Shown here: positions 8,679 to 32,060 of the stretch, piece by piece
Layout of the letters: each line of letters opens with the position of its first letter
How positions within the stretch are numbered: the first letter of the stretch is position 1
Virus record (IMG/VR): IMGVR_UViG_3300037225_000932
Location: 32,001-96,000 of that record
DNA from: a virus
DNA length: 64,000 nucleotides
Direction: 5' to 3' (one strand)
Position numbers and translations under genes: made by a program
Notes under the pieces: generated by a model
What the model was told of the DNA's origin: nothing
What the model saw: only the letters and a program-made list of their open reading frames with translations
Database searches by the model: none

Positions 8679-9968
8679 ATGGATCAAAAGATTTTAACAA
8701 AACGTGAAACACAACTACGACATTCTATTCAAGACTGTAAGGTTTTTGAAGTTAAAATCGTTAAATCTAAACTATCTAAAACATCACTAAATAATATGAA
8801 CACGTTATTCAAAGAAGCAAAATACTTTTATAACTTTTGTTTGTCTCACGATAATCTTGATTTAATAGATACTAAGGTAAAGTCAGTTCCAGTTAAAGTT
8901 CTTGATAAGTTTGAAGATAGAAAATTATCTATTTTGCCAGGACAATCAAAACAATCTATAAAATCAAAAATGTTTTCAAACATAAAAGCACTTAGTTCAC
9001 TAAAGAAAAAAGGGAAAAAAGTAGGCAAACTAAAGTTTAAGAGTTTTTTACATTCTATTCCATTAGTTCAACACGGAATGACTTATAAAATAGATTTTAA
9101 TACTTCAAGAGTAAAAATACAAAATATCAAACAAAAACTTAAAGTGTCAGGTTTATCTCAAATACCTAAAAATATAGAGTTAGCAAATGCTTCTTTAATA
9201 AAAAGGTGTAGTGATTTTTATCTTCATATAACTACTTTCTCAAATAAAATAGAAAAATTTATTACAGAAACTTCAGTTGGAATAGATTTTGGTTGTTCTA
9301 CTCAACTTACTCTTTCTAACGGAATAAAAATAGAATATCAAGTTCCCATCTCTAAAAGACTTAAACGATTAGATAGAAAAATAACGAAGAAAAATCGTAA
9401 AAAATCAAATAATAAGTTTAAAGATCAAATAAAAAGAGAAAAAGAATATAATAAATTAAATAACAAAAAAAAAGACATAAGAAACAAAATAGTTCACGTT
9501 TTGACAAATAACTTTAAGTATATTTGTTTTCAAGATGAAAACTTAAAAGAGTGGCAATCAGGAAATCATGGAAAGAAAATCCAGAATGCCAATCTTGGTG
9601 GAATTATCAGAGATCTAAAAAATAAATCTCATACACCAATCGAAGTAAATAAGTTCTTTCCTTCTACTCAATTATGTCCTAAATGTGGTTGTAAAAATAA
9701 ATTAGAACTAAAAGATCGAATTTATAAGTGTAAATGTGGATATAAAAAAGATCGTGATATACACGCTGCTAAAAACATAGAGCTAGAAGGAATGAAAGAT
9801 AAGAAAATACCTGTGAGTAATAAGATTACGAACAAGTATAAAATACCTGTGGAACGCAGGGAATTAAAGACTGAGGAGAGAAATACCTCTACTACTCATA
9901 TTTTTGATCTCTTAAAAAAGATTAATGGTGTGAGAGCAAGTAATCTCGTTGAGTCAGTAAGCCAATAA
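8679..9968 (+). CDS. tnpB: TnpB RNA-guided endonuclease
   Basis: RuvC-I VGIDFG, RuvC-II variant FQDENL, Zn ribbon CPKC...CKC, RuvC-III DRDIHAAKNI. Confidence 0.9.
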   Translation: MDQKILTKRETQLRHSIQDCKVFEVKIVKSKLSKTSLNNMNTLFKEAKYFYNFCLSHDNLDLIDTKVKSVPVKVLDKFEDRKLSILPGQSKQSIKSKMFSNIKALSSLKKKGKKVGKLKFKSFLHSIPLVQHGMTYKIDFNTSRVKIQNIKQKLKVSGLSQIPKNIELANASLIKRCSDFYLHITTFSNKIEKFITETSVGIDFGCSTQLTLSNGIKIEYQVPISKRLKRLDRKITKKNRKKSNNKFKDQIKREKEYNKLNNKKKDIRNKIVHVLTNNFKYICFQDENLKEWQSGNHGKKIQNANLGGIIRDLKNKSHTPIEVNKFFPSTQLCPKCGCKNKLELKDRIYKCKCGYKKDRDIHAAKNIELEGMKDKKIPVSNKITNKYKIPVERRELKTEERNTSTTHIFDLLKKINGVRASNLVESVSQ

Positions 9969-12091: not shown

Positions 12092-12430
12092 ATGGAGACT
12101 AATATTCCTAAAAATACTGATGATTTATTTTTTGAGCAAAAAAATGTATCTGATCCAAAAATACAAAAAATTATAGTAGCATCAAGAAGGATGAGAGATG
12201 CGAGAACAGCCGTGAATAGAAACATTAAAGAGATGAGTGAAATATTTAGAAATAAAGTTAGTGAAGAAAAAATGGAAGAATGGAGATTTAAAGGAGAAGA
12301 CGCTATTGATGAACAAATTATAGCTTCAAAAGAACTATATGAAGCTTTAGATGAATTTGACGGGACACATGTAGTAGAAGAGTTAAAAAAAGAATTTGGA
12401 GACGATATATTTGATGTTGAAGAATATTAA
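12092..12430 (+). CDS. Hypothetical protein
   Basis: ORF within the operon. Confidence 0.6.
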   Translation: METNIPKNTDDLFFEQKNVSDPKIQKIIVASRRMRDARTAVNRNIKEMSEIFRNKVSEEKMEEWRFKGEDAIDEQIIASKELYEALDEFDGTHVVEELKKEFGDDIFDVEEY

Positions 12431-12794
12431 AACAAAAGAGTTTCTTAATGGAAAAATTCATAGAGCAACAATCACTGGAACTTTTCCTGATTATGAGGGA
12501 AGTATAACTATAGATAAATATCTCATGGACCTTTCCGATATAGCTGAGTATGAAAAAGTTTTAGTAGCCAATATAGATACAGGAGAAAGATTTGAAACAT
12601 ATGCTATTTACGCAGAACCGTATTCAGGTCGGATAGAAATAAATGGAGCAGCAGCAAAAAAAGCTAAAATAGGCGAAAAAGTAATCATTATGTCTTTTGT
12701 TAGTTTAGAAAAAGGAGATAATGGAAAATATGAAAACAGTCCTTTTATGGTGAAAGTAGACGATAAAAATAAGGTTATAATATTTAAGGATTAA
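12414..12794 (+). CDS. panD: Aspartate 1-decarboxylase
   Basis: KIHRATIT, YEGSITID (Gly-Ser autocleavage site), RFETYAI, INGAAA; ATG 12414 likely start. Confidence 0.92.
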   Translation: MLKNIKTKEFLNGKIHRATITGTFPDYEGSITIDKYLMDLSDIAEYEKVLVANIDTGERFETYAIYAEPYSGRIEINGAAAKKAKIGEKVIIMSFVSLEKGDNGKYENSPFMVKVDDKNKVIIFKD

Positions 12795-13283: not shown

Positions 13284-13357
13284 GAGCCAAAGTCGCAATA
13301 GGATGCGAGAAGATCTCTAAAATCTTTAATGTATGGGTTCGACTCCCATTTGGCTCA
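13284..13357 (+). tRNA. Amber suppressor tRNA, anticodon CUA
   Basis: Acceptor GAGCCAA/TTGGCTC plus A; D arm TCGC/GCGA; anticodon stem AAGAT/ATCTT with loop CT-CTA-AA (CTA at 13317-13319); T arm ATGGG-TTCGACT-CCCAT; non-canonical A8; CCA not encoded. Confidence 0.88.
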
Positions 13358-13431
13358 CTTGAACTCAGACAGAAGCATTTAAGGTAAATTATTAGAAAGG
13401 ATGTCTATATGATTATGACTCTTCAGACAGT

Positions 13432-13632
13432 TTGCAGACGATTGTTATGAACCTTCCAGAAATAGTAAAAGATAAAAAAGATAAAATTAAGAATCTTTTT
13501 GATGAAGAGGGTATTGAAATTGCTAATACAATATTTGGTAGAGGTCTAAGTCCATATTTAGGATCATCACTTATGGATAAAGCTGAGAGTATAAATGTGG
13601 TTGTCCGAATGCTCGCAGAACACCGTCTATGA
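13432..13632 (+). CDS. Hypothetical protein or gene fragment
   Basis: Short ORF with an uncertain start. Confidence 0.35.
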   Translation: MQTIVMNLPEIVKDKKDKIKNLFDEEGIEIANTIFGRGLSPYLGSSLMDKAESINVVVRMLAEHRL

Positions 13633-13647
13633 ATAATAATGAAACTT

Positions 13648-13677
13648 AAAGGAAAATTTTATTTTTTGCCGAATAAA
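13648..13677 (+). promoter_or_regulatory. Phage promoter AAAGGA-N17-GAATA, sigma-28-like (TAAAGG...GCCGAATA)
   Basis: Matches a motif found at many other positions in the window. Confidence 0.6.
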
Positions 13678-13696
13678 TATAATAAGGAGAAAAAAT

Positions 13697-14050
13697 ATGA
13701 GTTAGGTATCAAAATGTCAAGTATCAGAAAACCATCCGTTTGTTTATGTCTTAGTTAGAAAAGATTTATCATTTGGATCATGTTGCGTTCAATCATGTCA
13801 TGTCATCATAGAAGCCTCTAAAACTTTTGGATTCACATAGGAACATCCTTCTATAATTGTCTGTGAAGTATCAGACGAATGTTCTTTATTACGTTCAGCA
13901 TCTAAGTTAGAAAAATCTGGTATATCTTTTAAACTATTTCAAGAACCAGATATAGACAATCATTATACAGCCTTAGCAACCAGACATGTTTATGGGTCTG
14001 AAAGGTTATTATTTAAACATTTTCAGCTTTTAAAAGGAGATAAAATATGA
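13697..14050 (+). CDS. PTH2/PTRHD1-like peptidyl-tRNA hydrolase-fold protein with two in-frame TAG codons (absent from the ORF track)
   Basis: Hand translation: MS*VSKCQVSENHPFVYVLVRKDLSFGSCCVQSCHVIIEASKTFGFT*EHPSIIVCEVSDECSLLRSASKLEKSGISFKLFQEPDIDNHYTALATRHVYGSERLLFKHFQLLKGDKI. TAG at 13703 and 13838; AAGGAG RBS; TGA overlaps the next ATG. Confidence 0.75.
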
Positions 14051-14526
14051 GTAATTTAACAAGTTTTGGAATGTATGTGCCTCTCGATTATGAAACTTAC
14101 AAAAAAATTAAAATAATAAAATCTGTAATCAATGTTTCTGTTTTTAAAGTAAAAAGATGGAACAGGTGGATAAAAAAAGACCCCAAAAATAGAACTTATA
14201 AAAAAAACATAGTAAATGATAAAGGTCAGAAAATAGGTCAAGAAATAACAGGGTTTATTATAGAGCCATTTCCGTGTGAAATATTTTTTGAAAAAAATAA
14301 AAGGTATAGTCATTTTGGATATAATAACCAATATCACTATAATGAGATAGAGATAGAAGAATGGAAAGAAAAGGATATTCAAAAATGGTTAAAACAATGG
14401 GATTTGGCTAAAAAGGTATATAAAGAAGATAAAGATGTTAAACCATTAGAGATTTCAAAAGATAAAATAGAAGAGACTTATAAAAAAATATTAGATTTTT
14501 ATAACAATTTTGTTAAAAAATCTTGA
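14047..14526 (+). CDS. Hypothetical protein
   Basis: AAGGAG RBS; ATGA overlap with the upstream gene. Confidence 0.65.
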   Translation: MSNLTSFGMYVPLDYETYKKIKIIKSVINVSVFKVKRWNRWIKKDPKNRTYKKNIVNDKGQKIGQEITGFIIEPFPCEIFFEKNKRYSHFGYNNQYHYNEIEIEEWKEKDIQKWLKQWDLAKKVYKEDKDVKPLEISKDKIEETYKKILDFYNNFVKKS

Positions 14527-31593: not shown

Positions 31594-32060
31594 TGGCTAA
31601 TTTTTATAAGAAAATGATAAAAGTTTCTTTTAGGGGTAACACTCCACGAATAAGTGACGAAGATGACGCCCTGACTGATCCGTATAAGTCTAAAAGCGTT
31701 AATAACGAGAGGGGCACATTTGAACTAAATACTCCAGGAGACCAATCTGCTACTGGATTCGGAACGGATTATTATACAGATCATAAACAGCCACCAAAGG
31801 GCATTTCAGAAATAGAAGATAGAGCACTAAGAGAACCTTATGGAACAGATTTTGATGGGAATGATCCAAACTTAAATGATAAATATCCACTTATGGAAGG
31901 AAGTTCTAACCTATTTGATGATGAAAGTCCTCTTAGTAGATCTGCTATAATTAGTAGAAAAGAAAATGGCATAGATAGAGATAACACTTCCGTTGGACCA
32001 CATAATCAGTCAAGTAAAACAGAAAATATTTTCGATAATATAAGAAGAAGAATTCATTAA
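31593..32060 (+). CDS. Hypothetical protein, head module
   Basis: NFYKK..KVS N-terminus. Confidence 0.6.
   Translation: MANFYKKMIKVSFRGNTPRISDEDDALTDPYKSKSVNNERGTFELNTPGDQSATGFGTDYYTDHKQPPKGISEIEDRALREPYGTDFDGNDPNLNDKYPLMEGSSNLFDDESPLSRSAIISRKENGIDRDNTSVGPHNQSSKTENIFDNIRRRIH

Follow-up and report, generated by a model that had tools for sequence, protein, structure and literature searches.

Features of the locus

To examine the region around a tRNA with anticodon CUA in a viral genome (IMG/VR record IMGVR_UViG_3300037225_000932), we analysed a window of 64,000 nucleotides, corresponding to positions 32,001 to 96,000 of that record, together with the rest of the 173-kb genome; all coordinates below are those of the window and all features lie on the + strand. 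ARAGORN found a single tRNA in the window, at 13284-13358, with anticodon CUA, and the Rfam tRNA model RF00005 matched 13284-13357 over its full length (50.5 bits, E = 3.9e-9). This amber-suppressor-type tRNA has a standard cloverleaf with G1:C72 and A73, an 8-nt D-loop and a short variable loop, and no CCA is encoded. The 'tRNA-Pyl' label given by ARAGORN reflects the anticodon only, since the tRNA lacks the short D-loop and 3-nt variable loop of a Pyl-type tRNA and no match to the PylS synthetase was found in the genome. A comparison with the genome's other tRNAs showed it to be no closer to any of them (40-60% identity) and gave no amino-acid identity, the identity elements being ambiguous. 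Just after the tRNA lies a short motif, AGAAGCATTTAAGG (13371-13384), which in an alignment matches the 3' acceptor end plus trailer of the different tRNA(CUA) of the closest relative (locus L001); we infer that it is possibly a remnant of a replaced tRNA or a conserved trailer. A 66-codon ORF of unknown function, without a Pfam match, follows at 13432-13632 and is absent in L001, where the tRNA ends 47 nt before the ATG, so that it is probably an insertion.

The gene of interest occupies 13697-14050 and comprises 117 codons, with in-frame TAG at codon 3 (13703-13705) and codon 48 (13838-13840) and a TGA at 14048-14050. A 5' leader at 13644-13696, conserved with L001 and L002, carries the Shine-Dalgarno sequence AAGGAG (13684-13689), 7 nt before the ATG. 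No ATG, GTG or TTG lies in frame between the first TAG and the conserved YVLVRKDL core. The TGA lies inside an ATGA overlap with the next ORF (14047-14526), which encodes a 159-aa protein that we call partner X. The observation in the earlier note, namely a tRNA(CUA) cloverleaf upstream of a PTH2-like gene missed by the ORF track and interrupted by two TAG codons, was borne out in these respects, the exception being a promoter motif that it placed at 13648: a consensus scan returned no sigma-70-like promoter on the + strand near that position. The leader motif TTTTGCCGA...TATAA is not repeated in the window, so it is not a general phage promoter.

To determine whether the interrupted frame encodes an intact PTH2-like protein, we examined its sequence and predicted structure. 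The match to Pfam PF01981 (peptidyl-tRNA hydrolase 2) reached the curated cut-off but was borderline (23.0 bits against a cut-off of 23, E = 9.8e-5, residues 17-83), and a profile of the family hit the PDB peptidyl-tRNA hydrolases 24bt (E = 5.5e-7) and 2zv3 (E = 6e-4). The AlphaFold (AF2) model had a pLDDT of 89.5, and Foldseek ranks 1-10 were all Pth2 structures, including 2zv3, 3erj, 1wn2, 1xty and 1q7s (probability 1.00, TM 0.66-0.74). All 10 invariant family residues are kept, among them His35, Asp85 of the E-P-D motif and Thr91. The Lys of the G-K motif, together with the conserved Asp and Thr, is important in Sulfolobus Pth2; this Lys is not kept, the K-K of 24bt aligning with Q-Q in the family consensus and with S-C in the window, next to a 2-residue deletion. 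Classical peptidyl-tRNA hydrolase activity is therefore uncertain, hydrolysis of peptidyl-tRNA was not assayed, and we refer to the protein as PTH2-like, that is, a member of the fold and not a proven peptidyl-tRNA hydrolase. In the model the two TAG sites fall in the disordered N-terminus and in loop 45-51, where any inserted residue should be tolerated.

The family of partner X was found beside the PTH2-like gene in 39 of 124 homologue clusters (described below). Although its structure was predicted with a pLDDT of 93, X has no known fold and gave no Pfam match, no usable Atlas hit and no Foldseek match, and its best VIA-align Z was 4.5, to helical bundles only; binding between X and the PTH2-like protein was not evaluated. 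A Pfam tally of 145 neighbouring ORFs showed no recurrent known partner.

Coding of the genome

To assess whether the gene is merely one of many recoded genes, we examined stop-codon usage and TAG readthrough across the genome. The earlier note's estimate of about four TAG stops proved exact, in that 4 of 64 non-overlapping window ORFs end in TAG; genome-wide the counts were TAA 150, TGA 52 and TAG 23. No other ORF of 100 aa or more in the 173-kb genome convincingly needs TAG readthrough, although the record is estimated to be 88% complete, so that another TAG-containing gene could lie in the missing part. The window is densely coded under table 11. A region of low code-11 ORF coverage (110-170 kb) consists of short ORFs and gains as much from reading TGA as sense as from reading TAG as sense. 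A scan for other early-stop-gated ORFs in this genome gave only two implausible hits, whereas in related loci it gave a few, among them an HD-like gene in locus L012 and unknown genes in L030 and L117, none with a Pfam match. A crude codon-usage score for coding potential around every stop codon was too noisy to use and did not even recover the PTH2-like gene.

Conservation of the early stop and of the suppressor tRNA among homologues

To test whether the early stop is conserved and co-occurs with suppressor tRNAs, we collected homologues from viral and metagenome contigs. A scan of viral contigs with the single protein found nothing, whereas an alignment-based scan succeeded; one alignment (A1) was too diverse for pattern scans. 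A scan of 185,579 prokaryote species genomes with one conserved pattern returned a single hit, on a MAG contig. The resulting census comprised 152 loci in 124 non-redundant clusters, of which 99 keep a stop 1-9 codons after the start (95 TAG, 2 TAA and 2 TGA) and 20 are ungated; the start-to-stop distance is mostly 2-4 codons. Because the loci were chosen by similarity to this protein (the best 80 of 174 viral hits), the resulting figure of 80% describes this clade and not all phage Pth2; Klebsiella phage RaK2, for example, is ungated. An SD-like motif lies before the start in 81 of the 99 gated clusters. The syntenic relative L001/L002 (67% aa identity) has a tRNA(CUA) 47 nt upstream and begins ATG-CAA-TAG-GTA. 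The earlier note had stated in advance that its reading would fail if close homologues carried sense codons at both positions and this copy showed relaxed selection; the first of these was not the case at the early site, since L001 has TAG at codon 3, while its second site is CAA. Database proteins showing 'Q' at the early site at first looked like sense-codon versions and evidence for Gln, but their DNA showed them to be TAG translated under code 15, so that they say nothing about the residue inserted and no sense-codon version of that site was seen. Divergence over which the early stop is kept extends down to about 30% identity.

The type of stop matched the suppressor tRNA found nearby or elsewhere on the contig in every instance, with 49 TAG/CUA pairs, 2 TAA/UUA pairs (L084 and L040), 2 TGA/UCA pairs (L019 and L049) and none discordant; by our arithmetic, random pairing of labels 49/2/2 would match fully about 6e-7 of the time. 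L067 (TAG with CUA) and L084 (TAA with UUA) are 67% identical relatives. All 74 suppressors lie on the strand of the gene, and of 210 tRNAs in the flanks 70 are CUA, the next most common anticodon occurring 8 times. In 46 of the 95 TAG-gated clusters no tRNA(CUA) lay within the fetched flanks, though many of those contigs are short, and a restrictive pattern found one elsewhere in 3 of 5 genomes checked. Among 10,501 codons there were 16 internal TAGs, 14 of which sit 25-29 codons after the conserved Arg, in the same loop as codon 48 of the window's gene. The base after the early stop (+4) is a purine in 96 of 99 clusters against a 56% background (p = 1e-20). Where an HD domain is fused in front of the Pth2 domain, the TAG stays at the start of the ORF, at codons 3-8 of the fusion protein. 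Flanking genes, in most of the related loci, have high code-11 coding density and gain nothing specific from reading TAG as sense. The cultured jumbo phages Xanthomonas phage XacN1 and Pectobacterium phage CBB likewise have the gate, with a tRNA(CUA) elsewhere in the genome.

Interpretation

We consider the most likely explanation (probability roughly 0.8) to be a conserved phage 'lock-and-key' cassette, in which a suppressor tRNA is the key and the lock is the matching stop codon, placed a few codons after the start of a co-oriented PTH2-fold gene and here also at a second, loop position. In this view, ribosomes would start at ATG 13697 and meet UAG at codon 3, where they would either terminate, releasing only a dipeptide, or continue if charged tRNA(CUA) wins against release factor 1; the second UAG at codon 48 would repeat the test, so that output would rise steeply with suppression efficiency. 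Only then would the full 117-aa PTH2-like protein and, probably, the ATGA-coupled protein X be made. Our analysis directly supports the anatomy, the predicted Pth2 fold, the family-wide conservation of the early stop, the covariation of stop type with anticodon, the same-strand linkage, the purine after the stop and the standard code of the flanking genes, whereas it is by inference that we hold the tRNA to be expressed, charged and suppressing (no experimental or expression data were examined), that Gln is a plausible inserted residue given the CAA at the second site of the closest relative, and that the protein hydrolyses an ester bond at a tRNA 3' end. The core interpretation in the earlier note, a local and gene-specific readthrough gate coupling the PTH2-like gene to the adjacent suppressor, is thus strongly supported by the comparative evidence, while the ribosome-rescue or RF2-like feedback role that it proposed is still an inference. 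One consideration against a strong suppressor is that it would extend the 23 ordinary genes of this genome that end in TAG, although most extensions would be 11 codons or fewer.

Other explanations account less well for these data. Two in-frame stops in a 117-codon gene would normally mean decay, and CAA or CAG to TAG is a single transition in an AT-rich genome (GC 0.31); however, an ordinary pseudogene beside an unrelated tRNA is very unlikely, since both stops sit exactly at the two sites where TAG recurs across the family, there is no frameshift or other stop, all invariant residues and a confident fold are kept, the early TAG is shared with a 67%-identical relative and about 95 other clusters, and the relatives do not show relaxed selection in the form of frameshifts or loss of invariant residues. 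Genome-wide TAG reassignment (code 15, as in crAss-like and Lak phages) is similarly improbable despite the fact that tRNA(CUA) genes are typical of TAG-recoded phages (Borges et al., bioRxiv 10.1101/2021.08.26.457843), given the absence of other interrupted ORFs of 100 aa or more, the 23 TAG-terminated ORFs and the dense table-11 coding of the window.

A tiny upstream ORF followed by re-initiation at a non-canonical codon would require no suppression, and the codon after the stop is indeed often GTN or ATH (V in 35 and I in 22 of 99 clusters), near-cognate to start codons, in a setting where termination-reinitiation is common in phages. This reading is nevertheless unlikely, because it cannot explain the TAG at codon 48, the recurrent internal TAG site, the many N, D, G or T codons after the stop, the tracking of stop type with suppressor anticodon or the linkage of a suppressor tRNA at all. 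Neutral tolerance of TAG in the presence of an efficient suppressor is somewhat less improbable but still unlikely; it is consistent with the location of both sites in a disordered tail and a loop and with the CAA at the second site of the closest relative, but drift would scatter TAGs over many genes and positions, whereas here they occur in one gene family and at two positions, the early stop is kept over wide divergence, and the +4 purine bias indicates selection on decoding context.

With regard to physiological role, which is unknown, we favour, at low confidence, the view that the enzyme is produced in proportion to suppressor activity and either clears by-products of readthrough or failed termination (dropped peptidyl-tRNA) or acts on the suppressor itself as a brake. 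A more far-reaching possibility, which we regard as doubtful although not excluded, is that the cassette is a self-contained translational sensor or homeostat, in which synthesis of the PTH2-like enzyme reports the balance between suppressor decoding and release-factor termination at one stop codon. The enzyme, perhaps together with X or the HD domain, would then act on tRNA 3' ends, either on the suppressor (deacylating it or freeing it from peptidyl form) or on peptidyl-tRNAs dropped at unterminated stops, and would thereby set the level of readthrough that a standard-code phage imposes on its host. If so, this would be a natural tRNA-keyed gene circuit and the first defined purpose for orphan suppressor tRNAs in standard-code phages.

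Many standard-code phages carry suppressor tRNAs with no known purpose, and a conserved gene whose early stop matches the phage's suppressor gives those tRNAs a concrete client. The finding also bears on how phages move from the standard code to a recoded one, in that a gated helper gene could be the first step or a safety device. It matters for annotation as well, because gene callers truncate or miss this family: the window's gene is absent from the table-11 ORF list, the CBB gene is annotated from a downstream start, and code-15 calls print Q at the stop. Cultured phages of Xanthomonas and Pectobacterium carry the cassette, so that the idea is directly testable.

Relation to known systems

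We found no published description of this arrangement, but several known systems share elements of it. In Lak, crAss-like and other gut phages with code 15 (Borges et al., bioRxiv 10.1101/2021.08.26.457843; Peters et al., PMC9523058), a phage-encoded tRNA(CUA) reads UAG as Gln in phage genes while the host uses the standard code, and recoding has been proposed as a way to control when genes are translated. In those phages 26-71% of genes carry in-frame stops, mainly late and lysis genes, whereas here the genome is otherwise standard code and a single small gene family carries the stop, at a fixed early position and of a type that co-varies with the tRNA; the Borges et al. preprint does not mention a peptidyl-tRNA hydrolase. 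Archaeal and eukaryotic Pth2, noted in jumbo phages by Iyer et al. 2021 (PMC7824862), has the same fold, and the D-L...VQ.xHA and E-P-D...T-A motifs are conserved, but the present proteins form a divergent phage clade with a 2-residue deletion and without the Lys of the GK motif, and that paper says nothing of in-frame stops or suppressor tRNAs.

Xanthomonas phage XacN1 has a standard-code genome with two tRNA(CUA) genes in each terminal repeat, and its authors, who read through the 18 annotated amber stops, could not find a target for its suppressor tRNAs (PMC5852040). The target that we propose is an N-terminal TAG at codon 3 of ORF364, an HD-Pth2 fusion, which their test could not see. In prfB (release factor 2), an early in-frame UGA in a translation-factor-type gene likewise makes synthesis depend on how well that stop is decoded or terminated; prfB uses a +1 frameshift and senses its own product, whereas here the bypass is by a dedicated tRNA without a frameshift, and feedback by the product, which was not measured, is only a hypothesis. 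Finally, in engineered amber-suppression switches an orthogonal tRNA(CUA) is paired with a gene carrying TAG early in its frame, so that expression is conditional on the suppressor, and two TAGs sharpen the response. Those are laboratory constructs, and the cassette described here would be a natural, evolutionarily conserved counterpart, that is, the same 'amber-gated' switch built by natural selection.

A suppressor tRNA and a stop-interrupted PTH2-like gene

To determine whether the tRNA(CUA) described in the earlier note is genuine, we searched the window with ARAGORN, one of the programs the note had named for this purpose, and found one tRNA, at 13284-13358 (+), with anticodon CUA; the Rfam tRNA model matched it end to end (50.5 bits, E 3.9e-9). 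About 340 nt downstream, an AAGGAG (13684-13689) precedes an ATG at 13697, from which the frame reads Met-Ser-TAG-Val and runs to a TGA at 14048-14050, with a second TAG at codon 48 (13838-13840). No ATG, GTG or TTG lies in frame between the first TAG and the conserved YVLVRKDL core, and the terminal stop overlaps the ATG of the next ORF (ATGA, 14047). Translation table 11 lists no ORF here, whereas reading TAG as sense gives a 117-codon ORF. The observation made in the earlier note is real, and every element it described was present with one exception: a consensus scan did not find the claimed promoter motif at 13648, although the leader is conserved in a relative. Compared with that relative (L001, the closest found), the window has, within 13706-13735, a 15-nt insertion immediately after the first TAG that looks like a tandem duplication (GTATCA...GTATCA) and lengthens the disordered N-terminal tail by five residues.

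Genomic context and coding

The window occupies bases 32001-96000 of a 173,351-bp single-contig virus record (GC 0.31; linear; 88% complete as estimated by CheckV). It encodes a terminase large subunit, a portal-like protein, a ribonucleotide reductase and a SNF2-type helicase, together with an aspartate 1-decarboxylase (PanD-like, 12396-12794, Pfam E 1.6e-37) that is conserved in synteny in L001. The window is densely coded under table 11. Among 225 non-overlapping ORFs the stops are TAA 150, TGA 52 and TAG 23, and in the window 4 of 64 ORFs end in TAG, in agreement with the count in the earlier note. When every ORF of 100 aa or more that contains a TAG when TAG is read as sense was listed, only three kinds were recovered: upstream or downstream run-ons, antisense frames, and the PTH2-like gene. 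Genome-wide recoding is therefore rejected for this record. Outside the window, table-11 ORF coverage drops to 0.3-0.65 between positions 110000 and 170000 of the genome contig, a region that holds many short minus-strand ORFs, but reading TAG or TGA as sense does not specifically restore coverage there.

The genome also encodes a full-length tmRNA about 6 kb before the window start (contig positions 25567-25943, equivalent to 268-644 of locus L176; Rfam RF00023, 91.8 bits, E 4.6e-36), for which ARAGORN reads the tag peptide as ANTELALAA and which fits a phage that invests in handling stalled ribosomes. ARAGORN further calls a tRNA with anticodon UUA (ochre-suppressor type) at contig positions 134482-134555 (- strand), outside the window, but the Rfam tRNA model does not reach its gathering score there; no second PTH2-like gene exists in the genome, and no TAA-gated ORF was found. 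TnpB/IS605-type transposase-like ORFs lie at 8679-9968 of the window and at contig positions 10985-12520 (-), the second of which follows, in frame, a TAG that ends a short ORF beginning MNWY. Several unrelated-looking ORFs (contig positions 10985-12520, 13597-14205 and 109033-110367) begin with this same N-terminal motif, Met-Asn-Trp-Tyr.

Predicted structure of the PTH2-like protein

Pfam places the protein in PTH2 (PF01981) exactly at the curated cut-off. Structure prediction of the read-through product, which the earlier note had suggested as a check on the PTH2 assignment, was carried out with AlphaFold2 using 26 homologues as the alignment and gave a pLDDT of 89.5; the ten best Foldseek matches in the PDB are all Pth2 structures, including 2zv3, 3erj, 1wn2, 1xty, human 1q7s and 1rlk, at TM 0.66-0.74. 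All ten invariant family residues are present. In the model, the two TAG positions lie in the disordered N-terminal tail (first ten residues, mean pLDDT 58) and in loop 45-51 between helix 26-44 and strand 52-58, places where any inserted residue should be tolerated. The Lys of the Pth2 "GK" motif is not kept, however, being Q-Q in the family and S-C here, next to a two-residue deletion, and therefore we refer to the protein as PTH2-like rather than as a proven peptidyl-tRNA hydrolase.

Conservation of the early stop among relatives

The earlier note had specified that sense codons at both TAG positions in close homologues, together with relaxed selection on this copy, would refute its reading. 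The closest relative, L001 (a JGI contig; 67% aa identity), is syntenic from the aspartate-decarboxylase gene to the SNF2 helicase and has a different tRNA(CUA) ending 47 nt before ATG-CAA-TAG-GTA; it carries the early TAG, while its codon at the window's second TAG is CAA. Database proteins that seemed to have Gln at the early site translate to the query only with TAG read as Q; they carry the TAG as well.

To assess how widely the early stop is kept, we collected 152 loci from viral contigs, metagenome contigs and look-ups and reduced them to 124 clusters at 90% identity. In 99 clusters an in-frame stop occurs 1-9 codons (mostly 2-4) after an ATG, which is preceded by an SD-like motif in 81 of the 99. 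This stop, or gate, is TAG in 95 clusters, TAA in 2 and TGA in 2, while 20 clusters start directly at the core and 5 are unclear. In fusions with an N-terminal HD domain (PF01966), represented by L014:2461-3324, L093:2443-3312, L139 and L155 (ORF364 of Xanthomonas phage XacN1), the TAG sits at codons 3-8 of the fusion, about 190 codons before the Pth2 domain, so selection acts on a position early in the ORF and not on a Pth2 residue. A scan of 185,579 prokaryote species genomes with one conserved pattern returned a single hit, on a MAG contig, whereas the viral collection gave 174. A profile search of 1.84 billion representatives found 4,253 proteins at E <= 1e-3 and 1,922 at E <= 1e-10, and many of the called proteins begin exactly at the core, as expected if gene callers stop at an upstream stop codon.

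Linkage and covariation with suppressor tRNAs

Whether the early stop occurs together with CUA tRNAs had likewise been named in advance as a test. The flanks (up to 3 kb each side) of the 124 representative loci hold 210 tRNAs, of which 70 have anticodon CUA, while the next commonest anticodon occurs 8 times; in 35 loci the suppressor is the only tRNA in the flanks. All 74 suppressors are on the gene's strand, and of 76 clusters with full flanks, 46 have a suppressor within 3 kb. For five TAG-gated genomes with no suppressor in the flanks, a restrictive pattern search found tRNA(CUA) elsewhere in three: XacN1, Pectobacterium phage CBB and G001.

Stop type and anticodon agree without exception. 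Forty-nine TAG-gated clusters have CUA; the TAA-gated locus L084 has UUA, 305 nt into the locus after the conserved Arg codon, and TAA-gated L040 has UUA about 5 kb away on its contig; TGA-gated L019 has two UCA tRNAs, and TGA-gated L049 has UCA about 4.5 kb away. Locus L067 (Met-Thr-TAG-Asn-Lys-Leu-Tyr with CUA) and L084 (Met-Ala-TAA-Asn-Lys-Leu-Tyr with UUA) are 67% identical, which represents a compensatory change of lock and key. The suppressor tRNAs themselves are very diverse, with 62 distinct sequences among the 65 found in the first 88 loci examined, and the window's tRNA also differs from that of L001 even though the leaders are conserved. The anticodon is kept while the tRNA body turns over.

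Further signs of selection on decoding

Sixteen internal TAGs occur in 10,501 codons of the family body, and 14 of them lie 25-29 codons after the conserved Arg, in the loop that holds the window's codon 48; some are in genes that lack the early gate. The base after the early stop is a purine in 96 of 99 clusters, against 56% at first codon positions of the same genes (p about 1e-20), and Thr precedes the stop in 38 of 99. A 3' purine is reported to favor amber suppression (Bossi 1983). Flanking genes in nearly all loci are well covered by table-11 ORFs and gain no more from reading TAG as sense than from the TGA-as-sense control.

Genes adjoining the PTH2-like gene

The ORF that overlaps the PTH2-like stop (14047-14526), here termed protein X, belongs to a family found on the same strand in 39 of 124 clusters; it usually lies within about 110 nt downstream, and in five loci it overlaps the PTH2-like stop by 4 nt, consistent with ATGA. 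It has a W-G-Y-x-P-C-D-Y-E ... W-x-R-W-x-R-K-x-P-x-N-R signature, of which the second part is basic, and is confidently modeled (pLDDT 93), but it matches no Pfam family or solved fold; that it may bind RNA is only a guess. Protein X is not itself stop-gated, although in the window its translation is probably coupled to completion of the gated frame, by inference. An HD-domain protein is fused or adjacent to the PTH2-like gene in about 26 loci, but this genome has none. Locus L012 has a separate HD-like gene, a homologue of the N-terminal domain of the fusions, with its own TAG at codon 3.

Interpretation

The anatomy of the module, the predicted Pth2 fold, the conservation of the early stop, the covariation of stop and anticodon, the sequence context and the standard-code surroundings are results of the present analysis. 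What we infer from them is that the tRNA is made and charged and that at UAG-3 it competes with release factor 1. In this view, failure would cost only a dipeptide, whereas success would lead to a second test at UAG-48, making output depend roughly on the square of suppression efficiency, and the finished protein would then act on an ester at a tRNA 3' end. We assign a probability of about 0.8 to suppressor-dependent translation of the gene. The gene is not a pseudogene and the genome is not globally recoded, and the earlier note's proposal of a local readthrough switch is supported at the level that comparative genomics allows.

Three reasons for gating the gene can be considered. The enzyme may be needed only when suppression is active or termination is failing, for example to recycle peptidyl-tRNA dropped at unterminated stops, and the tmRNA encoded by this genome hints at a concern with stalled ribosomes. 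Alternatively, the enzyme may act back on the suppressor and limit readthrough, which must otherwise extend the 23 TAG-ended genes, or the gate may be a timer keyed to tRNA accumulation. These options were not separated by our analyses, and a closed sensor or feedback loop, while possible, is considered unlikely.

Cultured phages and comparison with known systems

A tblastn search found the family in 35 GenBank phage records, mostly jumbo phages of Xanthomonas, Stenotrophomonas, Klebsiella, Erwinia, Pectobacterium, Cronobacter, Serratia, Yersinia and Ralstonia, of which three were inspected. In XacN1 (AP018399.1), ORF364 is an HD-Pth2 fusion that reads Met-Lys-TAG upstream of its annotated start, which thus appears to lie after the early TAG, and the genome has two tandem tRNA(CUA) genes in each terminal repeat. 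CBB (NC_041878.1) reads Met-Ala-Gln-TAG, with its tRNA(CUA) 3.7 kb away; its GenBank annotation (286,027-286,341; our locus L157) starts the PTH2-like gene downstream of the true ATG and so misses the early TAG. RaK2, in contrast, is ungated.

Full-text literature searches found no description of this pairing. The XacN1 paper states that reading through the 18 amber stops revealed no target for its suppressor tRNAs (PMC5852040). Iyer et al. note PTH2 in jumbo phages, but no in-frame stops and no suppressors (PMC7824862), and the preprint on phage stop-codon recoding (Borges et al., bioRxiv 10.1101/2021.08.26.457843) does not mention peptidyl-tRNA hydrolases. Phage stop-codon recoding is already described; relative to the literature we could search, what is new here is a form of it that is gene-specific, a conserved lock-and-key between a suppressor tRNA and a PTH2-like gene in standard-code phages.
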